DNA from: an uncultured Candidatus Saccharibacteria bacterium
GTDB taxonomy: Bacteria > Patescibacteriota > Minisyncoccia > Phycocordibacterales > UBA918
Length of the DNA: 64,000 nt
Direction of reading: 5' to 3'
Assembly (NCBI GenBank): GCA_964399295.1
Contig: CAYNQD010000001.1
Coordinates: forward strand, 527,672-591,671
Under the pieces are notes generated by a model that did not search any database, was not told the DNA's origin, and was given only the letters and a program-made list of their open reading frames with translations. The position numbers and the translations under genes were made by a program. This document shows, in pieces, positions 1,281 to 31,096 of the stretch. How positions within the stretch are numbered: position 1 is the stretch's first letter; every line of letters starts with the position of its first letter.

Positions 1281-1370
1281 GGAGACGTGGCTGAGTGGCC
1301 GAAAGCGCCTCACTGCTAACGAGGTAGGGTTTAAAAGCCCTCGGAGGTTCGAATCCTCTCGTCTCCGCCA
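1281..1370 (+). tRNA. tRNA-Ser (anticodon GCT), with encoded CCA
   Basis: The sequence is GGAGACG...CGTCTCC G CCA, a 7-bp acceptor stem. It has a D-loop GG, a T-loop GGTTCGAATCC and a long variable arm (GGGTTTAAAAGCCCT). The anticodon loop is CT-GCT-AA. It lies immediately 5' of a recombinase-bearing island. Confidence 0.85.
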
Positions 1371-1448
1371 ATAGAACTAAGTATCGGAGTGACCCGCATA
1401 CTTCAAAGACACATGAAATGATCATGTGTTTTTTGTTAGAATTAAAGT

Positions 1449-2183
1449 ATGGAAGATGAGACAAAAAAGGTATATGACAAACTCGTTGAAGTACTATCTG
1501 AGCGTAGTGGTTATTTCGGTCGTGTAAGTACATGGGGTCAGAGACCTAATAAATACGAATATATTGGTTACGAATTAGATTCTGACTTCAGTATAAACTT
1601 GAATAACTTAACTGAGGAAAGAAGGAAATCTTTAACACGAATTATTTCGTATTTTGAAATACACGCCAATCCACTTAAGAAAGTGCTTGATAGTGATAGT
1701 AAAGAAACCCTTTCTGACTTCTATTCAGATTGGGCCTGGTCACACTTTATGACAGTGATTATGTTTGGGATGTTAGAGTTTGCAGTACGAGATAATCCTT
1801 CTTGTATTGTATGGCAAGATAAAAAGAGAGATCGAATTTATAAAGCCTCAAGTATAAAGAAATTTTTGGAAACTTTTTTACCGAAAGATATCAGAGATGA
1901 TGTAACTTCACGCTATAAAACTGAAGATAATAAAACGCTTAATACATTTGAAGAGGTGATAAATCATTTGTGGGAAGAAATTAGATCCGGTTTTATCCAT
2001 GAGGCTGGTGTTCATTACAAAGGAATGGAATGGACCACGCTAAGTGGAATGGGTTCTAAAGAAGATCCAATTAGATTGGGTCAAGATGTACCAATGCAGG
2101 AGTTATTACAAATCACTTGGCTAGCAATTTTAAATTCATATGGCTACACAGGTCGCTTAGAATTACCGAAGTATAAAATTTAG
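1449..2183 (+). CDS. Hypothetical protein (first gene of the island)
   Basis: 244-aa ORF with no recognisable motifs. It sits between the tRNA-Ser and the nuclease and recombinase genes. Confidence 0.4.
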   Translation: MEDETKKVYDKLVEVLSERSGYFGRVSTWGQRPNKYEYIGYELDSDFSINLNNLTEERRKSLTRIISYFEIHANPLKKVLDSDSKETLSDFYSDWAWSHFMTVIMFGMLEFAVRDNPSCIVWQDKKRDRIYKASSIKKFLETFLPKDIRDDVTSRYKTEDNKTLNTFEEVINHLWEEIRSGFIHEAGVHYKGMEWTTLSGMGSKEDPIRLGQDVPMQELLQITWLAILNSYGYTGRLELPKYKI

Positions 2184-2222
2184 TTGATTTAGAAATTGTT
2201 TTAATTCAAAACAACCCCCTTA

Positions 2223-3587
2223 CTATTCCATGTCTCTTTCTGAGATTTGAAGTCTTAATCTGGCACCCTCAATTAACTCAGTGTAGGTTACGATATCGAT
2301 ATTTTTATATGCAGACTTCATTTCTTTATATGCGTCTGACGCATTTTTCTCATAGTCTACTTTTGATACCCCAGACTTAATGCTTGGCGATAGTTCATCG
2401 TAAGGTTTCACTATCCTTTGTATTGTTCCTATGACTATAATTGCTTTTGGTCTACAGATCGAAAGGGTTATTGTTCCACCCAATTCTTGTTCTAGATAGT
2501 CTCTAATTGTTAAATCTCCAATTTTTAAATCAGTGTCGTGTTCTCTATATAATGCTGAAATATACCTTTCGGACTGTGCTGCGGCAATGCCAAGTGATTT
2601 TGATGGATAAAATTTACCTCTACTAGAATCGTAGTCCAGTAAAAATTCATCTGGTCTTTTTAGCTCTACAATTTCAATATCTGAAAGGTAGTTTATTAGT
2701 AAAATATCAAATTGTGATCTTGAATGACCTATAGCAGAAACTACATACTTATTAGTATTAAGTAATGCAGGTACTCCAAATATTATGTGTTGACCGTATT
2801 TAGTAAGTATCTTTTCCATCAAATCCTCAGGGCCGCTTATTGATAGTTTTGAAAAACCAAAAATTTCGCTTCCTAAGGTTTGAGCTTTAGTTCTGGTTAA
2901 ATTATCATCATCAACTATTGTCTGCATTGCATCGAGTAACCATTGGGCTTGCTTGTTAATCTGTTTAGTTATTACAATTTCAATATTTTCTCCAGTTTCA
3001 AGCTGACTAGTCAGTGCAACAATGTCACTTTGAGAAATCTTCCTATTTGCAATAGCCTCTTGGAGTAAAATTGAATAGTCTCTTACAGTAGTGGCTTCGG
3101 TACTGACCAGCGAGTAACTTTCTTCTAAAAATGGAGCGATTCGATTTCTGACACGTGTAGTTCTATCTCTACCTTCCTCGCGATAAATTGTTGTGAGGAT
3201 GAGGTATAAATCTAACTTAATATACAAAATACTACCTTCGATTTTGTTTTCTGGGCCTCCAACAATAATTTTGTTTAGCTTTGGATTAAGATGTCGGACC
3301 ATGTCCAAAACCCTTTTTACACCTCTTGGAGGATTGCTGATGTTTCCAGTTAAAACCCTCTTCAGTGTTTCGTGATTTATCAATATTGTTGCCTCATAAT
3401 CTTCTTGGATAACATCTTCCTTCATTCTAGGAAAATATCTTGTCTTAGAATAGGAAATTTCAGTAGTTGAGTACTTAAACAATATTTTTCGACCAACTTT
3501 AACTTGTTTAGCGGAGATAGTTAATTTACCGTCATCTTGTAGCTTTGAAAGTTTTGTCTGTAATTTTTCTTGAATAGGCTTTTTCAC
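2223..3587 (-). CDS. PD-(D/E)xK-family nuclease, possibly Shedu (DUF4263)-like
   Basis: 454 aa. The C-terminal region FDILLINYLSDIEIVELKRPDEF shows the D...(D/E)-x-K arrangement (D, then E-L-K about 14 residues later) characteristic of PD-(D/E)xK nucleases. It is a single-gene, defence-type protein next to the recombinase. Confidence 0.35.
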   Translation of the reverse strand: MKKPIQEKLQTKLSKLQDDGKLTISAKQVKVGRKILFKYSTTEISYSKTRYFPRMKEDVIQEDYEATILINHETLKRVLTGNISNPPRGVKRVLDMVRHLNPKLNKIIVGGPENKIEGSILYIKLDLYLILTTIYREEGRDRTTRVRNRIAPFLEESYSLVSTEATTVRDYSILLQEAIANRKISQSDIVALTSQLETGENIEIVITKQINKQAQWLLDAMQTIVDDDNLTRTKAQTLGSEIFGFSKLSISGPEDLMEKILTKYGQHIIFGVPALLNTNKYVVSAIGHSRSQFDILLINYLSDIEIVELKRPDEFLLDYDSSRGKFYPSKSLGIAAAQSERYISALYREHDTDLKIGDLTIRDYLEQELGGTITLSICRPKAIIVIGTIQRIVKPYDELSPSIKSGVSKVDYEKNASDAYKEMKSAYKNIDIVTYTELIEGARLRLQISERDME

Positions 3588-3628
3588 AATTTCAGTATAA
3601 CAAAACCATTTTGTAAAGCGAGATATCG

Positions 3629-4951
3629 CTAATTCAGTAATTCTAAAGTTTTATCTTTATATACTATCCTCGATCTCAAATTCGCCAATAACTCTCTCTT
3701 CTCAACAGTCGATCCTTCTTTCAGAATGTATTTTGCGTAGTTCCTGATATCCGTTTCAGGATCAGACTTTATCTTTTCTTTAGCTCCAAGCACTGATCTC
3801 TGGAATATGTTGAATCGTGCAATCTCATCTTCGAGCTTCTTTCGCATGCCTAATTCATTGATATCTACTTTATCTAATATCTTCAGAAGTTCCAGTATTA
3901 AATCTTCTTCTCTTATATACATATTTTTGCAGTTACGGTCTCTGGCTCGTGAGCAGGAGTAGTAGATGTATCTGTTTGCGCCACCAGCTTTAAGTTGTTT
4001 CCATTTCTCTTCAGCAGAGATGCCTGATCCGCAGTATCCGCAAGTAAATAGCTTTGTAAAGGCAAATTCTTTTGTTTCCCTCACTATCTGATCACGCTTG
4101 AGCTGTGCTTTGGCTTTTTCAAATAACTCTTGGGTGATGAGTGGTGCATGTTTTCCTTGATACCAGTTGCCACTATTCTTTGGTCGTTCAAATACCCCAT
4201 AGTAGAAAGGGTTTTCGAGTATACGATAGACACCTGAGAGAGTGAGTGGTTTGTTTCCTCTAGTGTAAAAGTTTAGCTCAAATCTGAGCCAGTTATATAC
4301 CTTTCGACCAGACCATTGCTCGTAGGCGACTTTCTCAAATATCTTTTTTACTGTCGGTGCACGAAGTGTATCTACAATCAGTTGGCACTTCTTATCCATT
4401 AGTCCCTGTGTTAGATAACCTAATGGTGCTATCCCTGACCATAGCCCCATCTCCGCTCTGGTCCGCAGACCCCTCTTCACATTAATACCTCTATTGTCAT
4501 TCTCCAGCTTCGCTTGCGATCCGAGAATCATCAGGAGGAACTTCTCATTTGGATTGTTGCCGAACTTCTGTCCGAACGTTCTTATCTCTTCTAATTTTCC
4601 CGCATCCATCAGGTCTACAATCCTCCCAAGGTCGCCAGCGTTTCTACTGATACGGTCGGGTGCCCATGTCAGAATACCGTTGTATTTACCTTCGCGTATC
4701 TCCTCAACTATTTCATTGAAAACTGGTCGTTGACCTGTCTCTTTGGCAGAGTGAGATTCGCGCTTCATTTCTACTATCTCCAAGCATTCTCGATCTGCGA
4801 GCTGGAGCATTTCCTTGATCTGGCTGTCTATCGAAAGCACTTGGCGTTCCTCAGACTCTGTAGACTTTCTAGCGTATAGGCAATATTTTACTTTTACGGG
4901 TACTACCTCCTGTATTGTCGTGCCGTGTGGCATTGATATCGTTTGATTCAT
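3629..4951 (-). CDS. Large serine recombinase (resolvase/invertase N-terminal domain plus recombinase and zinc-ribbon domains)
   Basis: The N-terminus VKYCLYARKSTESEERQVLSIDSQ carries the catalytic-serine resolvase motif. The C-terminus has a CGYCGS...YYSCSRAR zinc ribbon. The ORF track gives 3629..5056, but that start would overlap the divergent gene at 5022. The internal ATG at 4951 (MNQTISMPHG...) is the likelier start. Confidence 0.8.
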   Translation of the reverse strand: MNQTISMPHGTTIQEVVPVKVKYCLYARKSTESEERQVLSIDSQIKEMLQLADRECLEIVEMKRESHSAKETGQRPVFNEIVEEIREGKYNGILTWAPDRISRNAGDLGRIVDLMDAGKLEEIRTFGQKFGNNPNEKFLLMILGSQAKLENDNRGINVKRGLRTRAEMGLWSGIAPLGYLTQGLMDKKCQLIVDTLRAPTVKKIFEKVAYEQWSGRKVYNWLRFELNFYTRGNKPLTLSGVYRILENPFYYGVFERPKNSGNWYQGKHAPLITQELFEKAKAQLKRDQIVRETKEFAFTKLFTCGYCGSGISAEEKWKQLKAGGANRYIYYSCSRARDRNCKNMYIREEDLILELLKILDKVDINELGMRKKLEDEIARFNIFQRSVLGAKEKIKSDPETDIRNYAKYILKEGSTVEKRELLANLRSRIVYKDKTLELLN

Positions 4952-5021
4952 ATAACCTATCAATGACGCAACGACCCACATAAGTCTAGGCAAAACAGCA
5001 CAAAAGAGTAGAATTCTCTTA

Positions 5022-6074
5022 ATGGCACTACGAAAGCAAAGAATACCTAAATACAAAGGTCATATAATGACTAGTATTGATGCTGCTAAATTGGGAATTG
5101 AAATGTTTAACAGAGTTGAAGGTGTTCACTCAAGACAAGCGGCTTTAATTTTCAATGCTCAAGCTTGGGAATTGTTTGCGAAAGGAGTACTTACTAAAAA
5201 GAAGATAAATATATACAAAGCTGATGGGACCTCACTTAGTGGTGAAGTGGCGGTTCATAAACTTTATAGCAGACTTCATATTTTGAATGAAGTTGAGAGT
5301 CAGACCATTCAACAAGTTTTTTCGCTCAGAAATGAAGCCATGCACCACGTCTTGTCAGATGTGCCTGATGAAATACTGACACATTTAATGTATTTTTCAC
5401 TAAAGATTTACCATAAACTATTAAAGGAACAATTTCCATCGTATTTTAAAGAATTTGATAAGAATTATTTGTCTATTGCTTTCAAGGAAAACACTTTCTA
5501 CTCTCATAGAATCAAAAAACTCTATTCATCCTCTAAAAAAACTAATACCCAGAATAATCATCTTTTATATTTACTTGACCGTGCATGTAAATATGGTGCT
5601 GAATCAGACGAAAACAAGAAAATACTTTCTTATAAAGAGTGGCAAAAAAGAATAAAAGCTAAACCAAAGAAATCAAGAATCTCGAAGCATCTCTCAGTTT
5701 ATGACTATACTCAAAAACAGGATGATGTGCGTTTTGTTCCAGTAGAAACTCCCAAAGGGCATGGGGTAAATATTGATATAAGGAAAGCAAAGAAACAATC
5801 AGAAGCTTTAAGTGTTTTTATTAAAAAAAGTAATCCAGATAATGATTACCCGTTTCTAACTTCAGACATGGCTAGTCATTTGGGCAAGACTGATTATTTT
5901 GTAAGAAAACTAGCAGAAAAACTAAAGTTTGAGGGAAACACTGAATATAAGACTGTTATCAAGACAGGTAAAAAGAGCACAACTAAAAAGTTTTCAAACA
6001 AGGCTTTGGAAAGGATGCGTAGCTGGATTAAAGATAACCCACACTGGAGTCCTTATAAAACAAAGAGTACATAA
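5022..6074 (+). CDS. Hypothetical protein with an Rx4H (HEPN-like) motif and a Lys-rich C-terminal half
   Basis: 350 aa. The motif SLRNEAMHH fits the HEPN Rx4-6H pattern. The C-terminal half is basic and Lys-rich, consistent with nucleic-acid binding. The start may instead be M16 (at 5067). Confidence 0.4.
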   Translation: MALRKQRIPKYKGHIMTSIDAAKLGIEMFNRVEGVHSRQAALIFNAQAWELFAKGVLTKKKINIYKADGTSLSGEVAVHKLYSRLHILNEVESQTIQQVFSLRNEAMHHVLSDVPDEILTHLMYFSLKIYHKLLKEQFPSYFKEFDKNYLSIAFKENTFYSHRIKKLYSSSKKTNTQNNHLLYLLDRACKYGAESDENKKILSYKEWQKRIKAKPKKSRISKHLSVYDYTQKQDDVRFVPVETPKGHGVNIDIRKAKKQSEALSVFIKKSNPDNDYPFLTSDMASHLGKTDYFVRKLAEKLKFEGNTEYKTVIKTGKKSTTKKFSNKALERMRSWIKDNPHWSPYKTKST

Positions 6075-6166
6075 GAAAAAAGATATTTTGCTTCGCAAAA
6101 CCAATAAAGTAAGCTAAGGTACTCAAATGATGATTTCACCTAGATATATAAGCGTATTTAGCCTAT

Positions 6167-9100
6167 TTGTGCTATAAATACTGTATGTACTCAGTAAATG
6201 ACTACCTTTCTGAGATAGCCAAGTACTTTGAAGATGAGAACAGTTCTGAGCACTCGTATCGGACATCATTTCAAAATTACTTAGCTACTATATTCCCCGA
6301 ATCAGAGGGCTATTTTATTCAGCAGGATCAGCGAGCAATAAACGGCAACAAACCAGACTATATTGTCCTCAAGAACAAAGTTCCACTTTTATATATTGAA
6401 GTTAAGAAGGTTGGAGAAGATTTAAATAAAATTGAAAACTCTAATCAAGCCGATCGTTATTTCGGATACACAAACTTAATCATTAGTGATTACGTTGAGT
6501 TTCGTTTTTTCAGGAATGGTCAGCGGTACGACGACTCGATATCACTTGGTGATGTTCATGCTAAAACTCGCACTATCTCCCCTAAGGCAGAGAATGCGGA
6601 GCGTCTTGTGCGTACAACTAAAGACTTCACTAATAGTCAGAAAGAGCCAATCAAGAGTGGTAGGCACTTAGCAAAAATTATGGGAGGTAAGGCTCAGCGC
6701 ATCAGAGATAACGTTATTGCTTTTCTTGAAACTGAAAGTACTGATAAAGATGAGCTAATTCGGATGCGAAGGTTTATTAAGGAGCATTTGATTGAAAACT
6801 TCTCTGATGCAGATTTTGCTGATATGTACGCCCAAACTTTGGTGTATGGACTTTTTGCAGCTCGATACAATGATGATACTCTCGAGAGCTTTAGTCGTCA
6901 GGAGGCACGAGAGTTGGTACCTGCTACCAATCCATTCTTAAAGAGTTTCTTTGATCACATCTCGGGCACTTCTTTCCCTCGCCGTTTAGAACTTATCGTT
7001 AATGAACTTTGTGAGGTATTTACCCATGCAGACGTTAAGGCATTGATGGAGGACTACTTCAAAACAACCGATTTATTTGGTACAGACCATGAGAGTCCAG
7101 ACCCTGTGATCCACTTTTATGAAGACTTCCTTCGAGAATACGACCCTTCTAAAAAGATGGAAATGGGTGTTTTTTACACACCGCTTCCTGTAGTTAGATT
7201 TATTATTCGAGGTATAGACGAGCTTCTTAAGAAGGAGTTTGGTATTGCTAAAGGTTTGGCAGACAACGAAAAGATATCTGTAACAAAAACTCATGTAGAT
7301 GATCGAGGAAAAAATATTAAAGACACTCGAGAGATTCATCGTGTACAAATGCTCGATGTGGCAGTAGGTACTGGTACGTTCCTTAATGAAACGGTGAATC
7401 ATATTCACGAGTCACAGAAATCTAACCAAGGTCGTTGGAATGCGTATGTAGAAGACGATTTATTACCTCGTCTACATGGTTTTGAACTTATGATGGCAAG
7501 TTACACTATTGCTCATCTCAAGCTTGCAATGACCCTCAAGAAGAGTGGCGTGGAAAAGTTTGGAAAACGATTAGGCGTATATCTTAGTAACACGCTCGAT
7601 GATGCTCATAACATACCGTTAACTAGCTCATTATTTGGTGTTGTAGATAGTATTGCTCAGGAAAGCCGACTTGCTTCGGAAGTAAAAAATGACACACCTA
7701 TAATGGTAGTGATGGGTAATCCTCCGTATTCAGTAGTGTCACAGAACCTTCATTATACTGATAATCAAGTTTACAAAGTAGAACCAGGCGGCTTGAAAAA
7801 GCTAAAAGAAGATAAAAATTTCCTTGATGATGATTATGTTAAGTTCATCCGTTTTGCTGAAAGTATGGTTGAGAAAAATGGCGAAGGTATAATTGGGATG
7901 ATTACAAATCATGGCTATATTGATAACCTCTCTTTTAGAGGAATGCGTTGGCATTTAAGGAATACTTTCGATGTGATTTATGTACTGGATCTTCATGGAA
8001 ATAGCACGAAGAAAGAAACTGCACCTGATGGCTCAGAGGATAAAAACGTATTCGACATTAAAACAGGTGTATCAATTATTTTTGGAGTTAAGAAGAAATC
8101 TGAACAAAAAAATAAAGAACTTGCAACTGTGTACACTGCTGACATATATGGGAAGAGGGCTGAAAAATTTGCTGAATTAAGTAGTGCGAATATCGAAGGA
8201 ATTAAATGGAATAAACTACCTGAAGTTTCTGACGTTTGGAGAGTTGAAGGAGAAGGTAAAAGCGATTATATGAAAGGCTTTTCTCTGGCAGATTTATTCC
8301 CAAAAAATACAACCGGTGTCTTTACTCTAGGTGACGGTTTTATCGTTGCTGACAACAAAGATGAACTTGAAAAAAGAATTGAAGTTTTACTCAATGAAGA
8401 TGTGTCAGAGTCACAATTGACCGAGAAATATTCACTTGGAAAAAATTATGCTAGATGGGTCATTGAAAATAAAAAAGCGGGGAAAATAATTGACTTCAGA
8501 AGTACTTTAACTTCACTGAATTACAGACCATTTGATAAACGCTACACCACCCTGACGACTAGTTTGGTTTGGCGTCCGCGTATCTCCGTGATGAAGCATT
8601 TATTGCAATCTGGGAATACGGCGTTGTTATTTAGTAGACAGGGTGGAGCTGCAAATCCCACATCATTTGACACTATTTTTATTTCAGACTCTGCAGTTGA
8701 TCTTAATTTCTTTAGAAGAGGCGGTGAGGTTGTGTGTCCTCTCTACTTGTATGAAGGTGATGACAGAGTTGCTAATCTGGATGATGAGATTGTTAATAAT
8801 ATTGAAAAGATATCGCACAAGACTAATCCAGAGGATATTGTAGATTACATTTACGCGTATCTGCACTCACCTACCTATCGCACAAAGTACAAAGAATTTT
8901 TGAATGGTGACTTTCCTCGAGTTCCTTATCCGAAAAATAAAGATTATTTTTGGAAAATTGTAGAGTCAGGTCGTCACCTAAGAGAACTGCACCTACTTAC
9001 TCATTCTTCAATACAAAATCAAATCACCTCTTTTCCAGAAACTGGAACAGATACGGTAGATAAGCCAGTATTTAAAAATAACCGTGTATATATAAATGAT

Positions 9101-9292
9101 GTTCAGTATTGGGACGGTATACCGAAGGAGGTGTGGGAATTCTATATCGGGGGTTACCAACCATTGCAGAAATATCTAAAAGACCGTAAAGGCAAAAAAC
9201 TAAGCTCAGCAGAGTTTGAGAATTATGAAAAAATGATTGTCTCATTAAATGAAACAATCATGGTTATGAAGGAAATAGATAAAATTATTTAA
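6167..9292 (+). CDS. Type IIG/IIL restriction-modification enzyme (N-terminal PD-ExK nuclease, gamma-class N6-adenine methyltransferase, C-terminal target-recognition region), MmeI/PglX-like
   Basis: 1041 aa. The N-terminus has KPDYIVL...LYIEVKK (PD...E-x-K). The methyltransferase motif IV is VVMGNPPYS, and a motif-I-like LDVAVGTGTF is upstream. The start may be the second Met at 6185. Confidence 0.75.
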   Translation: MCYKYCMYSVNDYLSEIAKYFEDENSSEHSYRTSFQNYLATIFPESEGYFIQQDQRAINGNKPDYIVLKNKVPLLYIEVKKVGEDLNKIENSNQADRYFGYTNLIISDYVEFRFFRNGQRYDDSISLGDVHAKTRTISPKAENAERLVRTTKDFTNSQKEPIKSGRHLAKIMGGKAQRIRDNVIAFLETESTDKDELIRMRRFIKEHLIENFSDADFADMYAQTLVYGLFAARYNDDTLESFSRQEARELVPATNPFLKSFFDHISGTSFPRRLELIVNELCEVFTHADVKALMEDYFKTTDLFGTDHESPDPVIHFYEDFLREYDPSKKMEMGVFYTPLPVVRFIIRGIDELLKKEFGIAKGLADNEKISVTKTHVDDRGKNIKDTREIHRVQMLDVAVGTGTFLNETVNHIHESQKSNQGRWNAYVEDDLLPRLHGFELMMASYTIAHLKLAMTLKKSGVEKFGKRLGVYLSNTLDDAHNIPLTSSLFGVVDSIAQESRLASEVKNDTPIMVVMGNPPYSVVSQNLHYTDNQVYKVEPGGLKKLKEDKNFLDDDYVKFIRFAESMVEKNGEGIIGMITNHGYIDNLSFRGMRWHLRNTFDVIYVLDLHGNSTKKETAPDGSEDKNVFDIKTGVSIIFGVKKKSEQKNKELATVYTADIYGKRAEKFAELSSANIEGIKWNKLPEVSDVWRVEGEGKSDYMKGFSLADLFPKNTTGVFTLGDGFIVADNKDELEKRIEVLLNEDVSESQLTEKYSLGKNYARWVIENKKAGKIIDFRSTLTSLNYRPFDKRYTTLTTSLVWRPRISVMKHLLQSGNTALLFSRQGGAANPTSFDTIFISDSAVDLNFFRRGGEVVCPLYLYEGDDRVANLDDEIVNNIEKISHKTNPEDIVDYIYAYLHSPTYRTKYKEFLNGDFPRVPYPKNKDYFWKIVESGRHLRELHLLTHSSIQNQITSFPETGTDTVDKPVFKNNRVYINDVQYWDGIPKEVWEFYIGGYQPLQKYLKDRKGKKLSSAEFENYEKMIVSLNETIMVMKEIDKII

Positions 9293-9295
9293 TAT

Positions 9296-10006: not shown

Positions 10007-10009
10007 ATT

Positions 10010-11158: not shown

Positions 11159-11166
11159 AATTACAT

Positions 11167-12258: not shown

Positions 12259-13757
12259 TTCTCACAAAAACAGACTTTTTGATTTCTAAAGGATGTAATA
12301 AAAATGCTTGGCTGAAAGTACATAAGCCTGATGTCTATAGAAAAAAAGAACTATCGGCCTTTGAATTGAACATTATCGATACAGGTAATGAAATTGATGA
12401 ACTGGCGAGACAATTGTTCCCGGGTGGTGTTTTAGTTGAAGATCGTCATGATGCCACTCTTACTCAAGAGCTAATTGCTAATCGTACTCCCGTTATATAT
12501 CAGCCTGTATTTATAACTGATAAGTACTCAGCAATCGCTGACATCATTGTCTGGAACAATAATACAGAGGCGTACGACTTATACGAAGTAAAGTCCTCTA
12601 CTGCTACCCATGAAGGAGAAGGCGGCCGTCGAGCTGAAGAGTACAAAAATGACGTCGCGTTCCAGAAGGTTGTAATGGATACGTTATCTATTCCTGTCGG
12701 TAAGTTACATCTAGTTCGTCTAGATAAATCTTATGTTCGCTCTGGAGAGCTTTCAATTCAAAAGCTTTTCATAACTAAAGAAATTACGGAAGATGTAGAG
12801 GAGATTGTGTCTGATATAGAAGGTCAAATGGCAGGCGTTCATGAATATATTAATCGTGAGCAAGAGCCAACTGGTCATTGTGACTGCTGGGTGAAATCTA
12901 AGAGCAATCACTGTACAACTTTCTGGTATTCAAATCCTGATATTCCCGACTACTCTGTCCATCAAATTTCTAGAATTGGTAATAGTCCTACAAAGCTCAC
13001 TGTATTGATTGAGAGTGAAATCATAGATATCCATAAGGTCCCTCACGATTTTGAACTCTCCGATAATCAAAGGCGTCAGGTGGATGTGGCTCAGTCAGGT
13101 AGAACTGTCATCGATTCCGAGGGTGTCGATACTTTTCTTGAACGACTGGAATACCCACTAGCTTTTATTGATTACGAAACATTTCCTTCTGCAGTGCCAA
13201 GATACTCAGGCTATCATCCTTACCAACAAATACCTTTTCAGTTCTCGCTACATATCATTGAAGAAGAAGGTGGTGAAATGACTCATGCTGAATTTCTGCA
13301 TACAGAAAATTCAAATCCAGACGAAAGATTTGTAGAGGCCATAAAAGAACATTTACCACCTACGGGGACTGTTCTTGTTTGGAGTCAAAAGTTTGAGAAA
13401 GGTATCAATAATCAGGTTGCTGAAAGACTGCCTCAGTATCAAGAATTTATCACTAGCGTGCAAGATAGAATCGTTGACCTAATTGAGCCATTTGATGGAA
13501 AAACCGCAGTGTATTGGCATCCAGATTTTCTTGGAAAGTCATCTATCAAATTCGTTTTACCTGCCCTTGTGCCTAAACTTTCATATAAAGAACTAGAGAT
13601 ACAAGAAGGTGGTGCCGCTGCTGATACATGGAACAGAATCGTGTCTGGCGAATATTCAGATGAAGAGGCTCAGCGAAAGATAACTGCACTCCTAAAGTAT
13701 TGTCACTTGGACACTTTGGCGATGGTTGAGATATGGAAGGTGCTCAAGCGGTCATAA
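12255..13757 (+). CDS. Fusion of a Cas4/RecB-like PD-(D/E)xK nuclease (with a Cys cluster) and a DnaQ/DEDD-like 3'-5' exonuclease (DUF2779-like)
   Basis: 500 aa. The N-terminal half has ADIIV...YDLYEVKSS (D...E-V-K) and a GHCDCWVKSKSNHC Cys cluster like the Cas4 Fe-S cluster. The C-terminal half has AFIDYETF, which matches the DnaQ Exo I motif D-x-E-T. The 4-bp start/stop overlap with the HNH gene suggests translational coupling. Confidence 0.5.
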   Translation: MILTKTDFLISKGCNKNAWLKVHKPDVYRKKELSAFELNIIDTGNEIDELARQLFPGGVLVEDRHDATLTQELIANRTPVIYQPVFITDKYSAIADIIVWNNNTEAYDLYEVKSSTATHEGEGGRRAEEYKNDVAFQKVVMDTLSIPVGKLHLVRLDKSYVRSGELSIQKLFITKEITEDVEEIVSDIEGQMAGVHEYINREQEPTGHCDCWVKSKSNHCTTFWYSNPDIPDYSVHQISRIGNSPTKLTVLIESEIIDIHKVPHDFELSDNQRRQVDVAQSGRTVIDSEGVDTFLERLEYPLAFIDYETFPSAVPRYSGYHPYQQIPFQFSLHIIEEEGGEMTHAEFLHTENSNPDERFVEAIKEHLPPTGTVLVWSQKFEKGINNQVAERLPQYQEFITSVQDRIVDLIEPFDGKTAVYWHPDFLGKSSIKFVLPALVPKLSYKELEIQEGGAAADTWNRIVSGEYSDEEAQRKITALLKYCHLDTLAMVEIWKVLKRS

Positions 13758-13779
13758 GTCGTCTGTTATTATATTAAGT

Positions 13780-14442
13780 ATGGAATTTTCTACATCAAAC
13801 ATCATCAAAGGAATACTCTCAGGCATGTGGGAGATGAAAGAGCTATATTTCACGATGATTGGTGTAGCACTGCTCGCACTCGCACTTCGAGTGATGATTG
13901 ACCTCATGAGTCGGCGAAGTAAGATCAAATGGTTTTTAGGAAAGAAGCAAGTGCAAGATCTTCAGAAACTTACCCCTACACAATTTGAAGAATATATCGC
14001 AGTACTTTTTAAATCTCTTGGCTATGAAACTAGAGTTACGGGTGGCAAGGGTGACGGTGGTGTAGATGTTCAAGCTGAAAAAGACGGTCATGTTCACTAC
14101 ATCCAGTGTAAGAAATTCATCACCTCAAAAGTGCCAGTCAGTGCGGTACGTGATTTTTATGGAGCCATTGCAGATCGAGTAGATGGAGGAAAAGGGTATT
14201 TTATTACCACCAACGTTTTCACTCTTGATGCTGAGAAGTTTGCTGAGGATAAACCAATTGAACTCATCGACAAGTTTAAGTTAATGGAGTACATGCAGAT
14301 GGTGGATGCTGATATTCCTGAAGTAAAAGCGTCAGTTTGTCCAAAATGTGGAAGTGAGCTAGTGAGACGTCGAGGCAAGTATGGTGCTTTTCTAGGCTGT
14401 AGCACATATCCAGATTGTGACTATACAGAGAAACTTACCTAA
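13780..14442 (+). CDS. Mrr-family restriction endonuclease with a C-terminal topoisomerase-type C4 zinc ribbon and an N-terminal TM segment
   Basis: FEEYIAVLFKSLGYETRVTGGKGDGGVDVQAEKDGHVHYIQCKKF matches the Mrr_cat core (GxxDxGxD...QxK). The C-terminus is CPKCGSELVRRRGKYGAFLGCSTYPDCDY. The ORF track start at 13726 overlaps the previous gene, so the Met at 13780 is used here. Confidence 0.65.
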   Translation: MEFSTSNIIKGILSGMWEMKELYFTMIGVALLALALRVMIDLMSRRSKIKWFLGKKQVQDLQKLTPTQFEEYIAVLFKSLGYETRVTGGKGDGGVDVQAEKDGHVHYIQCKKFITSKVPVSAVRDFYGAIADRVDGGKGYFITTNVFTLDAEKFAEDKPIELIDKFKLMEYMQMVDADIPEVKASVCPKCGSELVRRRGKYGAFLGCSTYPDCDYTEKLT

Positions 14443-15914
14443 GTTCGTAGTTTACTCAACTCCTCGGTAAATACTTCTAGACCCTCATTCTGTTTTGGAA
14501 TGAGGTTTTGTATTGTAATACTTGGGTCAGGTAGGAATGTTTGTATTGGGTACTTAATATTTCTTTTAGTATAAATAACCTCTTGTATATGGTCATCTGT
14601 GTGCCGCAGGTAAAAATTTAGAGTATTGATGGAGTCTGAAATTTCAGCAAGTTGGTTTAATACTTTCTCACTCAAGTCCTCTCCAACGATTTCTGACATT
14701 CTCTCAGCAATAGCCTTGAAAGCTAGTAGATGACTGTAGCTCTCAAATACTGACGATTCATGGACTAGAAAAGCTGGATAACTGTACATCATTAAGTCAG
14801 TAATTTGATTTTGATAATCATTCACAAACGGTAGTTGTATATTTGATTGCACAAGACTTTCTCCAGTTATAAAAGTCTTGTTGAGACACACTTCAAAAAA
14901 CTTAGTCGGGCATTCTTTAAGTACTAGGTCACCAGTAGAAATATATTGCTGTAGCAGATTAACTGTTTTATCTTTAGCCTTTATCCAGCGTCGCATAATT
15001 TCATCGTGTCTGAGTTCAGTTTCGCCTTCGAAAGTCAGATGCCCCTCGCTGTTACACAGCGGTGTATATTCATCAAAAAATAGACCTTCACGTATGGAGT
15101 CCCGAACAATACCCTCAAGCTTGTATTTCAGATCAGGGAGCTTAGCCAGTTCAGCATGAAGCTCGTCTTCAGTTTTGAATAAAATATTGTTTCGACTAGC
15201 TAATCGTTTCCCGAAGTTAAGTAAAGGATAGCCAGCAAAGTGGGTTTTAAAGATAACCTCTTTAACGCTTATTTTCACCACACTAAAATTAGCCTCTTGC
15301 CCCCAAGGGATTGAGTCGATAACTATCTTAGTAAGAACGTCTACTTCTTTTTCTGAGAGTGACTGCTTACCAGTAAGGATACGAGCTAGTTGCTCTTCAG
15401 CTAAAAAGTATGAGTGGTCTGATGTTACAGAAGGATCGAGTAGTAATATATCTTGCTGAAGTTTCTTAGGTAATGAATAGAATGTATACAGATGCACCAG
15501 TCTGTCGTATTCAAAGCCAGAGTGCTGTAAAAAGAAGTCACGAAACTCTTTAGTGTGATCATCCGGGATCACTCGACTAAGAAAATGCTTACGTTGCTTT
15601 GGGCTATCCCTTTTGTAGTAAAACATTTGGGCGATCTGCTCCAAGCGAGCAATAGATAGCTGCGATACCAAGTATGAGGTCTGCATATCTATTTCTAGTC
15701 GGCCGAACATATTCCAGACCTCTAGATATTTGTTGTACTGCTCAGCCTCTCTATAATCACGAGGTTTCCAACTCGTTGTCAGGGCTACGATATCGGCTTC
15801 AGTAACAAGACCCTTCCCAGTCTTCCGCTCATGAGCTTCATTTCGTATCACTAACAAAACTCGCTCCCGAGGGGTCAGGTTTCCTTTAGCCAGTAGTTTT
15901 GTAATATCTTTCAT
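14439..15914 (-). CDS. Hypothetical protein (last gene of the minus-strand accessory operon)
   Basis: 491-aa ORF with no recognisable motif. It converges on the plus-strand defence operon, and the stops are 4 bp apart. Confidence 0.45.
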   Translation of the reverse strand: MKDITKLLAKGNLTPRERVLLVIRNEAHERKTGKGLVTEADIVALTTSWKPRDYREAEQYNKYLEVWNMFGRLEIDMQTSYLVSQLSIARLEQIAQMFYYKRDSPKQRKHFLSRVIPDDHTKEFRDFFLQHSGFEYDRLVHLYTFYSLPKKLQQDILLLDPSVTSDHSYFLAEEQLARILTGKQSLSEKEVDVLTKIVIDSIPWGQEANFSVVKISVKEVIFKTHFAGYPLLNFGKRLASRNNILFKTEDELHAELAKLPDLKYKLEGIVRDSIREGLFFDEYTPLCNSEGHLTFEGETELRHDEIMRRWIKAKDKTVNLLQQYISTGDLVLKECPTKFFEVCLNKTFITGESLVQSNIQLPFVNDYQNQITDLMMYSYPAFLVHESSVFESYSHLLAFKAIAERMSEIVGEDLSEKVLNQLAEISDSINTLNFYLRHTDDHIQEVIYTKRNIKYPIQTFLPDPSITIQNLIPKQNEGLEVFTEELSKLRT

Positions 15915-15916
15915 AG

Positions 15917-16123
15917 TTACTTTCTTTGAGTAAGCATTTGTTCCAGTACATCGATACGCTGTTTGAGTTCCATGTTAGTAATGTTTTTAGACAAGGCTAA
16001 CGCTATTCGAGATATGACCTGAGCCCGCTTAGGTGAAATCTTTCTAGCGGCTACTTGGAGCAGGGCATCAGAGAGGATTTCATTAACTTCAGCTAAGTTT
16101 AGTGTTTTCTTTATTTCTTTCAT
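15917..16123 (-). CDS. Small hypothetical protein
   Basis: 68 aa. It is tightly packed between flanking genes in the same orientation. Confidence 0.35.
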   Translation of the reverse strand: MKEIKKTLNLAEVNEILSDALLQVAARKISPKRAQVISRIALALSKNITNMELKQRIDVLEQMLTQRK

Positions 16124-16126
16124 AAG

Positions 16127-16513
16127 CTAAAAGTTTTCAATTATTTCAAACCAAGTTTTTACCTCCTTTGATTTACCGTGCTTGGTAGCATTTTTATACA
16201 AGGCCAACACTACGTTTGGTGTCAGTTTTCTGGCCCATGTATAGGTATGTTCAAGCAAGCCCTCGTCTTCAATCCGTTTATTCCAGTCAGTGAGTGTACC
16301 TAGGTCTTTGACGTTGTAGTGTGAAGCAAAGTCTTTTTGAGTTTTTATCTGCAATAGCTCAATGGTGATGTCGTCATCAATACCCATCTTTCTTAGTACA
16401 GCATCAGGCTGACCTCGCAGGAATGTCGGTAGTGATTTCCACGTCACATACGCCGCAAAGTCCTGTTTGCGATATACACCAGTATTTCTTTTTTCATTAT
16501 GATGCTCGCTCAT
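16127..16513 (-). CDS. Hypothetical protein (phage-like small protein)
   Basis: 128 aa. It overlaps the upstream methyltransferase gene by 17 nt. Confidence 0.4.
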   Translation of the reverse strand: MSEHHNEKRNTGVYRKQDFAAYVTWKSLPTFLRGQPDAVLRKMGIDDDITIELLQIKTQKDFASHYNVKDLGTLTDWNKRIEDEGLLEHTYTWARKLTPNVVLALYKNATKHGKSKEVKTWFEIIENF

Positions 16514-17270
16514 GCTTTGTGATTAATACTCGCTTCTGCTTCGTCAGCTCTTCTAGTCGCTTTAGACAGATTTCTACATACTCAGAGTCCTGTTCAATTC
16601 CAATACAAACGCGACCTAACTGAGCACAAGCAACAGCGGTACTTCCGCTTCCTAAGAATCCGTCATACACGACATCGCCAATACTGGTGACGTTTTGAAT
16701 TAGTTTCCGTAGTAGGCCAATCGGTTTTTGCGTAGGGTGGAGCTTTGACTTCTGTGGTCGAGGATGGAATATGGCACTGCTCATTTGAGCTTTTACTCGC
16801 TTGTGCTTTTTATACCAACCATAAGCAATAAGCTCTTGCTGAGGCAGATAGTCCATACGACCCATTACCGATTGGTTTTTGACCCATATCAGCATCTGAC
16901 TGAAATGTAGTCCTGCGGTGTACATGCCAGTTCTAAGAGCCAGAAACATGCTGTCGCAGTTAAAGATATGGAAGGTGTTGTATGGGTTCAGATGTGGCAA
17001 AACGGCCTCGATCCATGACTGAGTAAACCGAGCGTACTCATATTCACTTTGTATATGGTCACCCTTAATCACTTTGGCGTTTTTCTTACCAAGTTCAGCT
17101 ACGCCTACTTTATTCTCCACGTACGCTACTCCATAAGGCGGATCGGTCACAACTGATTGAATCTTTTTGGTACCAATAACCATCGCTACAAAATCTTTGT
17201 TAAGTGAGTCGCCACAGGCAACCACATGTTCGCCAACAGAGTAGATTTCTCCTGTAGTTATAGATTTCAT
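16497..17270 (-). CDS. DNA methyltransferase (beta-class N6-adenine or N4-cytosine)
   Basis: The catalytic motif is SVVTDPPYGVAY (DPPY). The SAM-binding region is HPTQKP...DGFLGSGST. This motif order is typical of beta-class amino-methyltransferases. Confidence 0.8.
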   Translation of the reverse strand: MKSITTGEIYSVGEHVVACGDSLNKDFVAMVIGTKKIQSVVTDPPYGVAYVENKVGVAELGKKNAKVIKGDHIQSEYEYARFTQSWIEAVLPHLNPYNTFHIFNCDSMFLALRTGMYTAGLHFSQMLIWVKNQSVMGRMDYLPQQELIAYGWYKKHKRVKAQMSSAIFHPRPQKSKLHPTQKPIGLLRKLIQNVTSIGDVVYDGFLGSGSTAVACAQLGRVCIGIEQDSEYVEICLKRLEELTKQKRVLITKHERAS

Positions 17271-18550
17271 ATTCGCTTAGCAGTTAGCTTGGTAAATTTC
17301 TCCCAGCGGTCAATGATGATGCTCGCGAATACGGGGTCTTGCTCTACTCCAAACCAGACACGTCGCAATTGCTCGCAAGCAATCAAATCACTACCACTAC
17401 CACCAAAACCAGAGAAGACAACGTGACCTGGAGCAGTACATCGCTTGAGTGGCTTTTCGTTTAGACCAACAGGCTTCTGGGTTGGGTGGAGGTAACTTTG
17501 CACATCATCTCGCTTCACTATCCAAAGATCGATCATGTCTAAGAGCTCGTTGTGGAGCTGGTTGCCAGTGGTGACTTCCTGATTAAGAATTTCATTTACG
17601 TTCTTAAGATTCTGGTTTAGGTAGGCTTTACCTGTCGTGCCATAGATTGCGGGCTCATGTACTCGGTTAAACGCAACCTTCGGCGTCATATTCTGATTAT
17701 TCTTTACCCAGTAACAGATTCGTCTGAAGAGTATCTTGTGTTGTTTATACAGTGCTTGAATTTCTCCCACGTACTTAGCGTCACACCAGTACAGATAGTG
17801 AGAATCGGCATGAGCTATTACTTTAGCTGTACTGATACTTGCTTCAATAAATGCATAGTACTCAGCATCACTCATCGAGTCTTTTTTACTAGAGTACTGA
17901 CCCCCGTATTCCTTAGTGTTACTAATTCCTTTGTTATATGAAAGCCCAATGTTATAGGGCATATCTTGAAAGATGAAGTGGGCTTTTGTTTCGCCCATAA
18001 ACGTTGATACGAGCTCTTTATCAGTAGAGTCTCCAACAAGTAGGCGATGTTCTCCTAATTGCCACACTTCGCCAGCCTTTGCTCGGGGTTCAACCATCTC
18101 TTCAATTGCTTTGTCGACATCGTATTCATCTTCAGCTAATTCAACGTCATCGAAGAAGTCTTGTATTTCGTCATCTTCAAATCCAACATCCAGAAGAACT
18201 GATAGATCGAAGTTCTTCAAAAGCTCTTCGTCCCATGAGCCAGTATTCTTGTTGAGCCTAAGATTCAGCTCACGCTCTTCTTCGAGTGACAGTTCCCGAG
18301 AAGGGATCATGCATTCGACTGTCTTGTACCCTAGGTCAGCGTAGATTTTTATTCTCTGCTCGCCCCCGATGATGACATCAGCCCGTGAATCAATATTGAG
18401 AACTACTGGCACTACTGCACCAAATGTCTCAATCGATTTCTGTAGGTCTTGTTTTTGGTTACCGCTAACTTTACGTGGATTGTATTCGTTAGGTGTAAGG
18501 TCTTGCACCTTACGAGTAGCGGATGACCACGTTATCTTTTTTGTTTTCAT
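17267..18550 (-). CDS. ParB-like nuclease domain fused to a DNA methyltransferase
   Basis: The N-terminus (TPNEYNPRKVSGNQKQDLQKSIETFGAVVPVVLN) is a ParB/Srx-like domain. The C-terminus has FQDMPYN (a DPPY variant) and HPTQKPVGL...SGFGGSGS methyltransferase motifs. There is a 4-bp overlap with the downstream methyltransferase gene. Confidence 0.75.
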   Translation of the reverse strand: MKTKKITWSSATRKVQDLTPNEYNPRKVSGNQKQDLQKSIETFGAVVPVVLNIDSRADVIIGGEQRIKIYADLGYKTVECMIPSRELSLEEERELNLRLNKNTGSWDEELLKNFDLSVLLDVGFEDDEIQDFFDDVELAEDEYDVDKAIEEMVEPRAKAGEVWQLGEHRLLVGDSTDKELVSTFMGETKAHFIFQDMPYNIGLSYNKGISNTKEYGGQYSSKKDSMSDAEYYAFIEASISTAKVIAHADSHYLYWCDAKYVGEIQALYKQHKILFRRICYWVKNNQNMTPKVAFNRVHEPAIYGTTGKAYLNQNLKNVNEILNQEVTTGNQLHNELLDMIDLWIVKRDDVQSYLHPTQKPVGLNEKPLKRCTAPGHVVFSGFGGSGSDLIACEQLRRVWFGVEQDPVFASIIIDRWEKFTKLTAKRI

Positions 18551-18703
18551 AAGACTTATATTTAGGCACGTTGTTATACGTGTTAAGTCTTATGGTGGCA
18601 CCTAAAAATCAACCTCCAAAATGGAGGAAATTGGAGGAAACTTTAGAAAAGGTAGAGTACGTTTAGAGTATTTGAGGCTTATCCACAGCCATTTTCCTCC
18701 ACG

Positions 18704-19849
18704 CTACTCCAGTGAGTATAAATTGTTGAATCTGATACTAGTGCGAGTGATATTAAAGATAGGCTGGCTGTCGTTCGGATGAGAATTTATGATTTTATGC
18801 TTCTTTAAAAGTTTCTCAAAGCTCGTATTACTACCGATAAGTTGGGTACGATATTTTTCAGGATCATTTTCTACTCCGTCTGGTAAGAGTTTGATGAATT
18901 CATTTATATTTAATTCAATGACACGCTCTGGCATATATCGAATAACATTCTTGAAGAGTTGTATGTACTGATAGTCTTCACCCTTGTTTGTTGTTTTGTA
19001 TAAAAGTTTACTGTTTTGAAAATATATATGGTCCTGCTTAATTTCAAACAGCTTTGCTTGTTGTATTTCAGAGAGAGTAAAGACAATGCTGTTATGAAGA
19101 CGACTCAAATCTTGTGATATCCCTGCTTGAGGGTATGCGTTTGTTGCACTAAGGGTGGCCTGTTTAATTTTATTTATATAAGTGACACGAGCTACTGGTT
19201 TCTGCATCATTTCTACAAATTCACTCAATGTGATTTTGGTGTCATCATTAAAATTCAACATTTGATGATACAGCTTCACTCCTCGCATTAATGCACCAGA
19301 TACAGACAAGGCATCCTGATCATGAAATGTTCTGTGAAGTCCTAAAAAGTCAGCTCGTTTTTCAAACGAAATTAAATTATCACTCCTCATATCTTTAGCA
19401 GGATTAAAAGTCTCGTTGAGAAATGACATTGCTTCATCATCATACCCTAGTCTTTGCAATTCTTTTACTGCATCAAGTAACTCAAGTTCATTTGAGCCTA
19501 GCGGATGTTCATTTGAACCATGGTGGTTATGAGTCGCAAATGTCCGAAGACAACTTATCCGATCAGCAAGTAGGGCATTGCTTTCTAGATCATTCTTTTC
19601 AACTATAGCTTCAAGCGTTTCAACTGCCTTACCCGCACTCTGAACAATCTCGTCGTATTTATTTTGAAGTGCTTTGAGGTCATTTTCTCTGGCTACTACT
19701 GCTGGTGCTAAATGTTCAATCAAAGCAAATCCATCAGTAACTAAAAAGCTAAAATAGTCCGCAAAGGCAGTTAGGAAAGTGTTTGTGGAGTGACTATTTT
19801 GCTGTATGGATTCATACAGCTTTTGCTCCTTATCTACCACGCTTTTCAT
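18704..19849 (-). CDS. Hypothetical protein
   Basis: 381-aa ORF and the first gene of the minus-strand accessory operon. No motif was recognised. Confidence 0.45.
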   Translation of the reverse strand: MKSVVDKEQKLYESIQQNSHSTNTFLTAFADYFSFLVTDGFALIEHLAPAVVARENDLKALQNKYDEIVQSAGKAVETLEAIVEKNDLESNALLADRISCLRTFATHNHHGSNEHPLGSNELELLDAVKELQRLGYDDEAMSFLNETFNPAKDMRSDNLISFEKRADFLGLHRTFHDQDALSVSGALMRGVKLYHQMLNFNDDTKITLSEFVEMMQKPVARVTYINKIKQATLSATNAYPQAGISQDLSRLHNSIVFTLSEIQQAKLFEIKQDHIYFQNSKLLYKTTNKGEDYQYIQLFKNVIRYMPERVIELNINEFIKLLPDGVENDPEKYRTQLIGSNTSFEKLLKKHKIINSHPNDSQPIFNITRTSIRFNNLYSLE

Positions 19850-20003
19850 AGCTAAATAGTATCACTTTGAGCGTTTTTATACAGAAAATCAAAACTCCTA
19901 GGAATTGGCATTGTTTGGCATTTGGGTCTTGAGTATCGGAACGGGGTTGATTTTTCCATATTTTATGACATTGTACTAATGGAAATAGAAACTTTGACTC
20001 GAG

Positions 20004-20195
20004 GTGAACAAGATGAACGTCTTTAAACTCTTCTTCAATTGGCTTGGCGAAAAGTTTGGCGCCTGGCTTCAAAAAGTCGGCGAGGAAAATCGCCCTATAG
20101 AGAACGACTACGATGCTCCGTTCGACGATGAACCGATGTTCAGGCGTTCAGATCTTATGCCTGACGAGCGAGGCGATTTTGACAATCGGTTCTGA
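20004..20195 (+). CDS. Small acidic hypothetical protein
   Basis: 63 aa. Its GC content (about 49%) is higher than the surroundings, and it marks the start of a compositionally foreign segment. Confidence 0.3.
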   Translation: MNKMNVFKLFFNWLGEKFGAWLQKVGEENRPIENDYDAPFDDEPMFRRSDLMPDERGDFDNRF

Positions 20196-20307
20196 AATGT
20201 GTTGACAAAGTACATTTTTTTGTGTTGAATACAAGAACTCGCAGGCTTACGAGAAGCTGTGAGCGTTCCTAGGAAACTGAAACCCTTCAACCTCATGAGG
20301 TGAAACA

Positions 20308-20796: not shown

Positions 20797-20877
20797 CGAT
20801 CGGCCGACGGCAATCATGAATCGCGCGTCATCCTTTCGAGGGTGACGCGCATTTTTTTTACAACCAGAGGAATCATT

Positions 20878-21381: not shown

Positions 21382-21454
21382 CTGGAACCCTGTTTTACGA
21401 ATGTATTCCAGGGTTTCTTTTTTTCTTAAGCTTCTATACAATAACTTTACTATT

Positions 21455-22051: not shown

Positions 22052-22291
22052 GTCTTCTAACTTACATTTGATTATATTTTGACTCCGACCCACTTACCTA
22101 AATTGACCTAGCCAAAAGCTTCTATAATGCCCTTACAAGGCCTTATCTGTGGGGCACTTAACCCAAATAGCCCGCGAGCACAAAATAGCGCCCATAAGGG
22201 CGCGTATTTTGTTCGTGCATTTGCATTTCCAAACCATACTAAACTATAATTCAACCTAACAGCGCGCAAACCCAAAAACTTCCTTTCCTCT

Positions 22292-31051: not shown

Positions 31052-31096
31052 CTTTGTTTTGAATTTCATATCCTTCTAGTGTTATAATCAAAAGTA

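Follow-up and report, generated by a model that had tools for sequence, protein, structure and literature searches.

Tyrosine integrases account for the movement of nearly all defence islands at tRNA genes. P2/P4-like phages and satellites, together with the phage-inducible chromosomal islands (PICIs), are compact tRNA-site elements in which a conserved backbone holds slots that exchange anti-phage systems. Targeting of tRNA genes by serine recombinases is described as rare (PMC3218068); the filamentous Ralstonia phage phiRSM relies on a small enzyme of the resolvase type with a 13-nt core at the 3' end of tRNA-Ser, and eight Mycobacterium actinomycete integrative and conjugative elements (AICEs) are found in tRNA-Leu with a serine recombinase (PMC3816273; PMC3218068). 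Bacteria of the candidate phyla radiation (CPR) rarely have CRISPR (PMC6509639). The element considered here lies in a 64,000-nucleotide stretch of contig CAYNQD010000001.1 from an uncultured Candidatus Saccharibacteria bacterium (the window), where positions 1369-22175 are read, with a probability of roughly 0.8, as a single integrated mobile element of ∼20.8 kb at the very end of a gene for tRNA-Ser. It very likely belongs to a very large and apparently undescribed family with mostly CPR/Patescibacteria hosts, and a full-text search of a limited literature collection found no paper joining Patescibacteria, prophage and serine recombinase and no description of this CPR family.

As a tRNA-linked defence island the element is nothing out of the ordinary; the family of serine-integrase elements on which it is built is unusual and very abundant. 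Like phiRSM and the Mycobacterium AICEs, it has a serine recombinase at a tRNA gene, but it differs from phiRSM in its large serine recombinase and 4-nt common core, where the phage has a small enzyme and its 13-nt core matches the tRNA end exactly. It is set apart from both by a terminase/ParB-methylase backbone, the others being a filamentous phage and conjugative actinomycete elements, and by hosts that are CPR bacteria and not Proteobacteria or Actinobacteria. Like P2/P4 and PICI elements, it is compact, sits at a tRNA and has defence systems swapped in set slots between near-identical copies, whereas its integrase is of the serine type and theirs is of the tyrosine type.

The recombinase and its probable tRNA-Ser target

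The target and the recombinase have the following positions, given here and below in window coordinates:

1281-1370, plus strand: tRNA-Ser(GCU) (ARAGORN, Rfam), its 3' end forming the left arm of the attachment site with the core CCGC at 1365-1368
3629-4951, minus strand: large serine recombinase (integrase) of 440 aa with Resolvase, Recombinase and Zn_ribbon_recom domains (phrog_95, 1e-58)

The protein has the layout of a large serine recombinase (LSR), with an N-terminal resolvase domain carrying the catalytic serine (PF00239, 1.9e-18, residues 25-170) followed by recombinase (PF07508, 2.5e-13) and zinc-ribbon (PF13408, 2.1e-9) domains. It aligns over residues 26-411 to the SPbeta integrase (9dxh), its nearest solved relative, with the catalytic YxRxS motif included and YARKS corresponding to YLRRS of SPbeta. 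A resolvase domain, a recombinase domain and a zinc ribbon with coiled coil are likewise found in the SPbeta SprA/YokA, A118, Bxb1 and phiC31 integrases. Unlike phage large serine integrases, which target a protein-coding gene or an intergenic site, this one is found at a tRNA 3' end; the protein is also short, and its gene does not stand at the edge of the element but 2.2 kb inside, because cargo sits between it and the left attachment site (attL).

At least 7912 related clusters were found at E ≤ 1e-100 in a protein database, more than 554 relatives with 67-98% identity in a metagenome scan and 34 in a scan of a viral-contig collection, and the named relatives come from Patescibacteria, Minisyncoccia and Giovannonibacteria. 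Where a relative at least 66% identical had a tRNA downstream, the first such tRNA was tRNA-Ser on the convergent strand in 47 of 48 cases (if the recombinase strand of each locus is taken as plus, the tRNA-Ser lies on the minus strand). These tRNA-Ser genes have five anticodon calls (gct, gga, cga, tga, and 'act'), and the gap between recombinase and tRNA ranges from 112 nt to ∼6 kb, with short cases of 112-148 nt. Relatives at 45-62% identity are placed likewise beside tRNA-Asp, Glu, Gln, Trp, or Asn, so that a single LSR family combines this abundance and a consistent tRNA-Ser association with sister clades beside other tRNAs.

The ComF protein flanking the element is 57% identical to that of CP060227, a complete 'Candidatus Nomurabacteria' genome, and the adjacency of ComF and tRNA-Ser(GCU) is kept there as well as in several metagenome loci. 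This ComF match and the named recombinase relatives place the host among the small-genome CPR bacteria. The tRNA-Ser(GCU) by ComF is followed in CP060227 by another cargo gene (AlbA_2/PDC-S65-like) and then by a recombinase remnant. This locus is L007 (L-numbers denote relative loci, most of which, as fetched, stop 10 kb from the recombinase), and the remnant, at 12951-13999 of L007, is truncated, has lost its catalytic domain and is split by an IS200/Y1 transposase gene (13094-13555); it is 91% identical to the window recombinase in protein and 79% in DNA, although the neighbouring ComF reaches only 57%.

That 79% nucleotide identity is close to the 74% of the neighbouring core DNA and, with the 'DNA invertase Pin-like' annotation that relatives have at JGI, would suit a domesticated, vertically inherited host gene, for example an invertase or resolvase, unconnected to the neighbouring insertions. 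Such an origin is very improbable given the full three-domain architecture of a large serine integrase, the position of relatives beside tRNA-Ser genes with five anticodon calls and of other subfamilies beside other tRNAs, the presence of several recombinase copies per contig as tandem arrays, and the 34 copies on viral-collection contigs. Furthermore, the recombinase is 94-95% identical between elements in which the backbone protein u491 (described below) is only 52-55% identical.

Attachment sites and extent of the element

The two ends of the element and the hairpins beside them are as follows:

1369-1396, plus strand: element end at attL (P' arm), CAATAGAACTAAGTATCGGAGTGACCCG, identified by the family motif
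1409-1435, plus strand: hairpin and T-run just inside attL, read from the sequence, with similar hairpins at the same position in many relatives
22086-22175, plus strand: element end at the right attachment site, attR (P arm), a 90-nt block ending ...TGGGGCACTTAACCCAAATAGCCCGC with the core CCGC at 22172-22175, identified by conservation across copies
22188-22203, no strand assigned: two-way terminator hairpin outside the element, with a comparable hairpin after the core in L073

At the left end, the family P' motif cAaGACAATTTAgTATCGGnGtgACCC directly follows the tRNA at constant spacing in 42 of the 47 tRNA-Ser loci beside a related recombinase, always in the same orientation, and other tRNA-Ser genes of these contigs, with no adjoining element, do not have it. 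The motif in the window scores 32.8 bits against the family matrix, compared with 13 bits for the next best match in the window and up to 18.7 bits for shuffled sequences. With the same matrix, neither a further nor an inverted P' motif came up in the window or the loci, so the two att arms are not simple inverted copies of each other.

At the right end, the last 90 nt (22086-22175) finish in ...CCCTTACAAGGCCTTATCTGTGGGGCACTTAACCCAAATAGCCCGC, and the consensus of this P block ends in ...TGGGGyACTTAACCCAnnnnGCCCGC. The block was found in nine independent copies (the window, L018, L028, L043, L073, L096, L203, L205, and L206); in all eight relatives it lies upstream of a ParB-methylase gene in the same orientation, CCGC is invariant, and unrelated DNA follows GCCCGC each time. 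The boundary is clearest in L203, found through a 93%-identical homologue of u491, which is 92% identical over window positions 13779-22175 and unrelated past 22175 in both DNA and protein; it is also 92.7% identical over the recombinase and has the attL motif in common with the window. Between the window and L205/L206, the P block is 90-92% identical even though the backbones are only 75-81% identical, which fits a putative protein-binding site for a recombinase that is itself 94-95% identical. L096 contains two elements in tandem, with the P block of one directly against the P' motif of the older, the expected outcome of a second element inserting at the tRNA end.

The junctions, with a slash at the boundary, read ...CGTCTCCGC/CAATAG at attL and ...ATAGCCCGC/GAGCAC at attR and have only CCGC in common (1365-1368 and 22172-22175), so the element spans about 1369-22175, or 20.8 kb. 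The very short common core, with conserved arms of ∼25-30 bp, may resemble the sites of phage large serine integrases, whose attP and attB are distinct, ∼40-50 bp long and have only a central dinucleotide in common. The island has what defines an integrative element, an integrase and a defined attL and attR at its ends (the P' motif at 1369-1396 and the P block at 22086-22175), and the same element occurs in several flanks, since L203, L205, and L206 have the P block and backbone in common with the window and unrelated DNA past the core.

An integrated, defence-loaded element associated with an LSR at tRNA-Ser(GCU) had been proposed in an initial annotation of this DNA, and both ends and the tRNA association of the family support that proposal. 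Its estimate of ∼19 kb with an end near 20300 fell short, the end lying ∼1.9 kb farther at 22175. The composition change that it noted at 20.0-20.8 kb is real but does not mark the distal end, being part of a high-GC patch (20.0-21.4 kb) of cargo within the element. It had reported no duplicated 3' segment of the tRNA, and none occurs anywhere in the 64 kb, where a search for direct repeats, inverted repeats and tRNA 3' duplicates as att sites gave nothing beyond chance. The short core that it considered consistent with a serine recombinase agrees with CCGC as the only sequence common to the junctions; of the two places suggested for it, the tRNA 3' end holds the core, whereas the partner is not near 19.9-20.3 kb but at 22172-22175.

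These ends suggest a specific mode of integration. The element site (attP) would be the P arm with the consensus end given above joined to the P' arm cAaGACAATTTAgTATCGGnGtgACCC, the tRNA target would be ...CTCCGC/CA at the discriminator/CCA position, and exchange would occur within or beside the common CCGC. Exchange at this point would leave the tRNA intact and make no tRNA-derived repeat. The reconstructed bacterial site, attB (1329-1368 joined to 22176-22215), would be GGAGGTTCGAATCCTCTCGTCTCCGC/GAGCACAAAATAGCGCCC, and the reconstructed attP (22146-22175 joined to 1369-1398) would be GGGGCACTTAACCCAAATAGCCCGC/CAATAGAACTAAGTATCGGAGTGACCC. Candidate attP and attB sites can thus be defined, and they give a concrete hypothesis for how an LSR reads the end of a tRNA gene. 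The hairpin at 22188-22203 is probably the original terminator of the tRNA. From these arrangements, we infer that the window recombinase catalysed the insertion with its crossover at this point, and that the element may excise at present and move from cell to cell.

Backbone genes and possible mobility

Clustering of open reading frames (ORFs) from 115 loci gave a family backbone that, read on the recombinase strand, runs from the P arm through a ParB-methylase, often a second methylase, the terminase small (TerS) and large (TerL) subunits and the recombinase to the P' arm. The corresponding part of the window is a convergent operon on the minus strand, to which u381 (18704-19849) also belongs, with the following genes:

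14439-15914, minus strand: u491, backbone, function not assigned
15917-16123, minus strand: u68, backbone, function not assigned
16127-16513, minus strand: u128, backbone, function not assigned
16497-17270, minus strand: DNA methylase (N6_N4_Mtase, phrog_498)
17267-18550, minus strand: ParB-methylase fusion (N6_N4_Mtase and ParB_N, phrog_498)

The backbone is conserved in 36 loci, where these methylase genes share the recombinase strand and stand upstream of it, and an S24/CI-like repressor recurs upstream in relatives. Two backbone proteins of ∼140 aa and ∼510 aa, present in most relatives, are the terminase small and large subunits (phrog_4044 for the former; phrog_38, 6e-74, and Terminase_6N/6C for the latter). 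In the sub-lineage of the window, the clustering places u128, u68, and u491 at the TerS/TerL position, and Mrr abuts u491 in all seven of its copies. Descent of u128 and u491 from diverged TerS and TerL was rejected, with hhalign probabilities below 1%. The predicted structure of u491 (pLDDT 86.8) is all-alpha and matches nothing in PDB or BFVD.

No capsid, portal, tail, or lysis gene was matched in the window, and in this respect the element does not qualify as a prophage. With the P block <1.1 kb upstream of the ParB-methylase in L018, L043, and L096, there is no space for virion genes in that part, and the whole L018 element, from P block to tRNA, measures ∼13 kb. Structural genes downstream of the L043 recombinase were considered and ruled out, the only PHROG matches being an ATPase and families without a function. 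Most family members have packaging genes without capsid or tail genes, as do PICI-type satellites. They differ from PICIs, which typically carry TerS only, in that most have both TerS and TerL, and the family has no known helper phage, replication module, or induction circuit. Because packaging genes are present and capsid and tail genes absent, we suspect that transfer depends on a helper phage, as in a satellite; the relatives, with TerS and TerL, have the integrase and packaging genes without a virion module that mark a PICI-like satellite of ∼10-20 kb, while u128, u68, and u491 of the window show no detectable relation to terminases.

In one sub-lineage, ∼600 nt of conserved non-coding DNA lie upstream of the ParB-methylase (L014 6300-6930, L074 6290-6915, and L089 6320-6945). 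Two strong hairpins and a GGTCGAyAT motif mark this block, which may serve as a regulatory RNA, as an origin, or as a packaging site.

Several points weigh against the reading of the 20.8 kb as a single mobile element integrated at CCGC. No recombination directionality factor was identified, a difference from phage large serine integrases, nor was any replication or transfer gene, and the window copy is without recognisable terminases. Inverted symmetry between the att arms is weak, with 9-10 of 30 positions and, farther out, 7 of 8 in a GGGnCACT motif, again unlike those of phage large serine integrases. The P block is known from nine loci only, since most loci were cut 10 kb from the recombinase. 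Comparison with relatives, suggested in the initial annotation as a route to the empty site, was unsuccessful: an uninterrupted arrangement of tRNA-Ser, terminator, and Ham1 was found in no strain in genome scans and contig look-ups. Lastly, at the far end of L018, ∼150 nt past the P block, a 21-nt fragment of the tRNA-Ser 3' end (TTCGAATCCCTCCGTCTCCGC) at 439-459 is followed by a P'-type motif and could point to crossover at the T-loop in some members. The fragment may be the relic of an older tandem element or the mark of a different crossover point. T-loop crossover was rejected as a reading of the family, since it is seen in no further locus and a tRNA fragment is missing from the tandem junction of L096.

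Contigs from the same species either break within the tRNA or all carry the island, and the ComF of the nearest other genome is only 57% identical; a single-protein scan of the genome collection with ComF gave nothing, and an alignment scan gave distant ComF only (≤34% identity). Contig breaks at window positions 1329, 21376, and 22021 were dismissed as signs of an empty site; the one in the tRNA is seen again in a contig of another species and is better explained by k-mers common to tRNAs.

The window copy without a recognisable terminase, capsid, replication, or directionality gene, the outright decay at the same site in CP060227, and the fact that neither an empty site nor a circular form was seen would also be expected of a fixed prophage or satellite remnant, which entered in the same way, no longer excises or transfers, and changes its cargo by ordinary recombination in a hotspot. 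We regard such a remnant as rather unlikely. The recombinase is full-length, with 100% identity between several samples and 92-98% between copies that differ in cargo, both ends are as conserved as those of other copies (P' at 32.8 bits and P block at 90-92%), and the same backbone occurs with different right flanks.

Cargo slots and exchange of defence systems

Cargo of the element falls into three slots, namely from the P' arm to the recombinase 3' end (slot 1), from the recombinase 5' end to u491/TerL (slot 2), and from the ParB-methylase to the P arm (slot 3). In the window, they contain the following genes:

1449-2183, plus strand: slot 1, 244-aa protein, function not assigned (no Pfam, PHROG, or PADLOC match; kept in L009 and replaced in L203, L011, and L007)
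2223-3587, minus strand: slot 1, Shedu nuclease SduA (SduA_C PF14082, 1.7e-8; seven PADLOC SduA profiles, best 2e-13)
5022-6074, plus strand: slot 2, DUF3644/PDC-S19 candidate defence protein (PDC-S19, 1e-20; R-x4-H motif, RNEAMH)
6167-9292, plus strand: slot 2, type IIG restriction-methylase with Type_ISP_C specificity domain (PADLOC REase_MTase_IIG, 3e-257; Type_ISP_C, 3e-74)
9296-10006, plus strand: slot 2, ZorB of type II Zorya (PADLOC ZorB2, 2e-67)
10010-11158, plus strand: slot 2, ZorA of type II Zorya, short at 382 aa (PADLOC ZorA2, 2e-58)
11167-12258, plus strand: slot 2, ZorE of type II Zorya (PADLOC ZorE2, 4e-37)
12255-13757, plus strand: slot 2, DUF2779 protein (profile search)
13726-14442, plus strand: slot 2, Mrr_cat and Zn_ribbon_Top1 nuclease, placed at about 13780-14442 within this frame (profile search)
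18704-19849, minus strand: slot 3, u381
20014-20196, plus strand: slot 3, 60-aa ORF
20308-20796, plus strand: slot 3, UCP032817-like protein of 162 aa
20878-21381, plus strand: slot 3, GNAT acetyltransferase
about 21455-22051, plus strand: slot 3, S-adenosylmethionine (SAM) methyltransferase

Profile searches agree with the genes named in the initial annotation, that is, the recombinase, the Shedu-like nuclease, the HEPN-motif protein, the operon of restriction-modification (RM), Zorya-like, and nuclease genes, and two methyltransferases, one of them fused to ParB. The Shedu protein is an SduA with the DUF4263 nuclease domain that characterises the system. ZorA (MotA-like), ZorB (MotB/OmpA-like), and ZorE (HNH) are encoded together, as in type II Zorya, and each matches its PADLOC type II profile over almost the whole length. 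The canonical type II order is zorA-zorB-zorE, which reportedly goes back to the 2018 work of Doron and colleagues; in the window and in L009 the order is instead ZorB-ZorA-ZorE, and the window trio, unlike type II Zorya, is set within a run of nucleases and methylases (type IIG, DUF2779, and Mrr).

Comparison with relatives reveals exchange in all three slots. A 95% identical copy, L009, is without the PDC-S19 gene, a clean presence/absence difference over window positions 4991-6080, and segment 8316-8824 of the type IIG gene cannot be aligned with it, the copy otherwise being 87-95% identical; this segment may be a swap of the target-recognition region that gives a new specificity. In L203 (92% identical), an IetA-like AAA/HSP70-like set and AbiEii stand in place of Zorya, type IIG, and PDC-S19 and of Shedu, and L011 is without Zorya. 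With the decayed copy in CP060227, these cases provide the variability among relatives that the initial annotation had set against invariant synteny as the test of its island. Slot 1 holds AbiEii in L203 and an AlbA_2-like gene in CP060227. Slot 2 holds Mrr, DUF2779, an SNF2 helicase, and a Type_ISP_C methylase in L204-L206 and a type I or type III RM system in many other copies. Slot 3 holds the same set as the window in L203 (92% at the nucleotide level), thymidylate kinase (Tmk), ribonucleotide reductase (RNR), and CYTH genes in L205, and two other genes in L206. In L204-L206, the 1360-aa SNF2 helicase occupies the position of Zorya between the Type_ISP_C methylase and DUF2779/Mrr, and these proteins together look like a split type ISP-like restriction system.

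Five genes make up slot 2 of L203 (12777-15269 and neighbours), two of them for an HSP70/MreB-like protein of 830 aa and an IetA-like AAA ATPase; the products of the remaining three matched no PADLOC model, and the set may be an undescribed defence system.

Base composition varies within the element, GC content being 0.42 in the recombinase and backbone, lower in the cargo (0.34-0.37), and 0.515 in the patch at 19991-21381, giving 0.39 over the whole element against 0.44 in the flanks. The high-GC patch, made up of the 60-aa ORF, the UCP032817-like gene, and the GNAT gene, was probably acquired from a donor of higher GC. This patchiness, from 0.34 to 0.515, and the gain or loss of single genes such as PDC-S19 between strains could instead indicate a tRNA-side defence hotspot built by several independent insertions, where the recombinase moves a small unit, for example itself and Shedu; short units do exist, as L068 and L075 have a recombinase with downstream cargo only, flanked by two P' motifs. 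For the 20 kb of the window this is unlikely, because at least nine copies in different flanks combine the P block with the backbone from ParB-methylase to recombinase, the similarity of copies is unbroken from Mrr to the P block and ends at precisely the core, and the window island has no second P' motif.

Cargo builds up and is swapped in the three slots of a conserved backbone, and the family offers a handle on the movement of anti-phage systems (Zorya, Shedu, RM, AbiE, and others) among CPR bacteria. CPR organisms have almost no genetics, and the element is a candidate tool for site-specific integration. A wider view, which we put forward tentatively and at slightly less than even odds, is that a CPR-wide family of thousands of compact satellite-like elements, with a ParB-methylase, a terminase pair, and a highly conserved LSR for the acceptor/CCA end of tRNA-Ser (and sister clades for other tRNAs), is a principal vehicle for the exchange of anti-phage systems in these small-genome bacteria, with an att/integrase pair that could be used as a genetic tool.

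Other features of the window

Within slot 3, an antisense ORF of 174 aa at 20293-20817 overlaps the UCP032817-like gene and is the one called in one public assembly. In several public short-read contigs from this species, the sequence stops at 21376 or begins at 22021, on either side of the SAM-methyltransferase gene, as though strains varied or a repeat lay there. Outside the element, type IV pilus genes lie upstream of the island region. Downstream are a tRNA-Ile (anticodon TAT) at 30979-31052 and a tmRNA at 37399-37795 (tag AKKSIPSPYANAFGFAPAFA), neither of which adjoins a related recombinase. A second low-GC patch (0.346) at 50000-52000 contains four short minus-strand ORFs of 160-207 aa and may be another accessory region.

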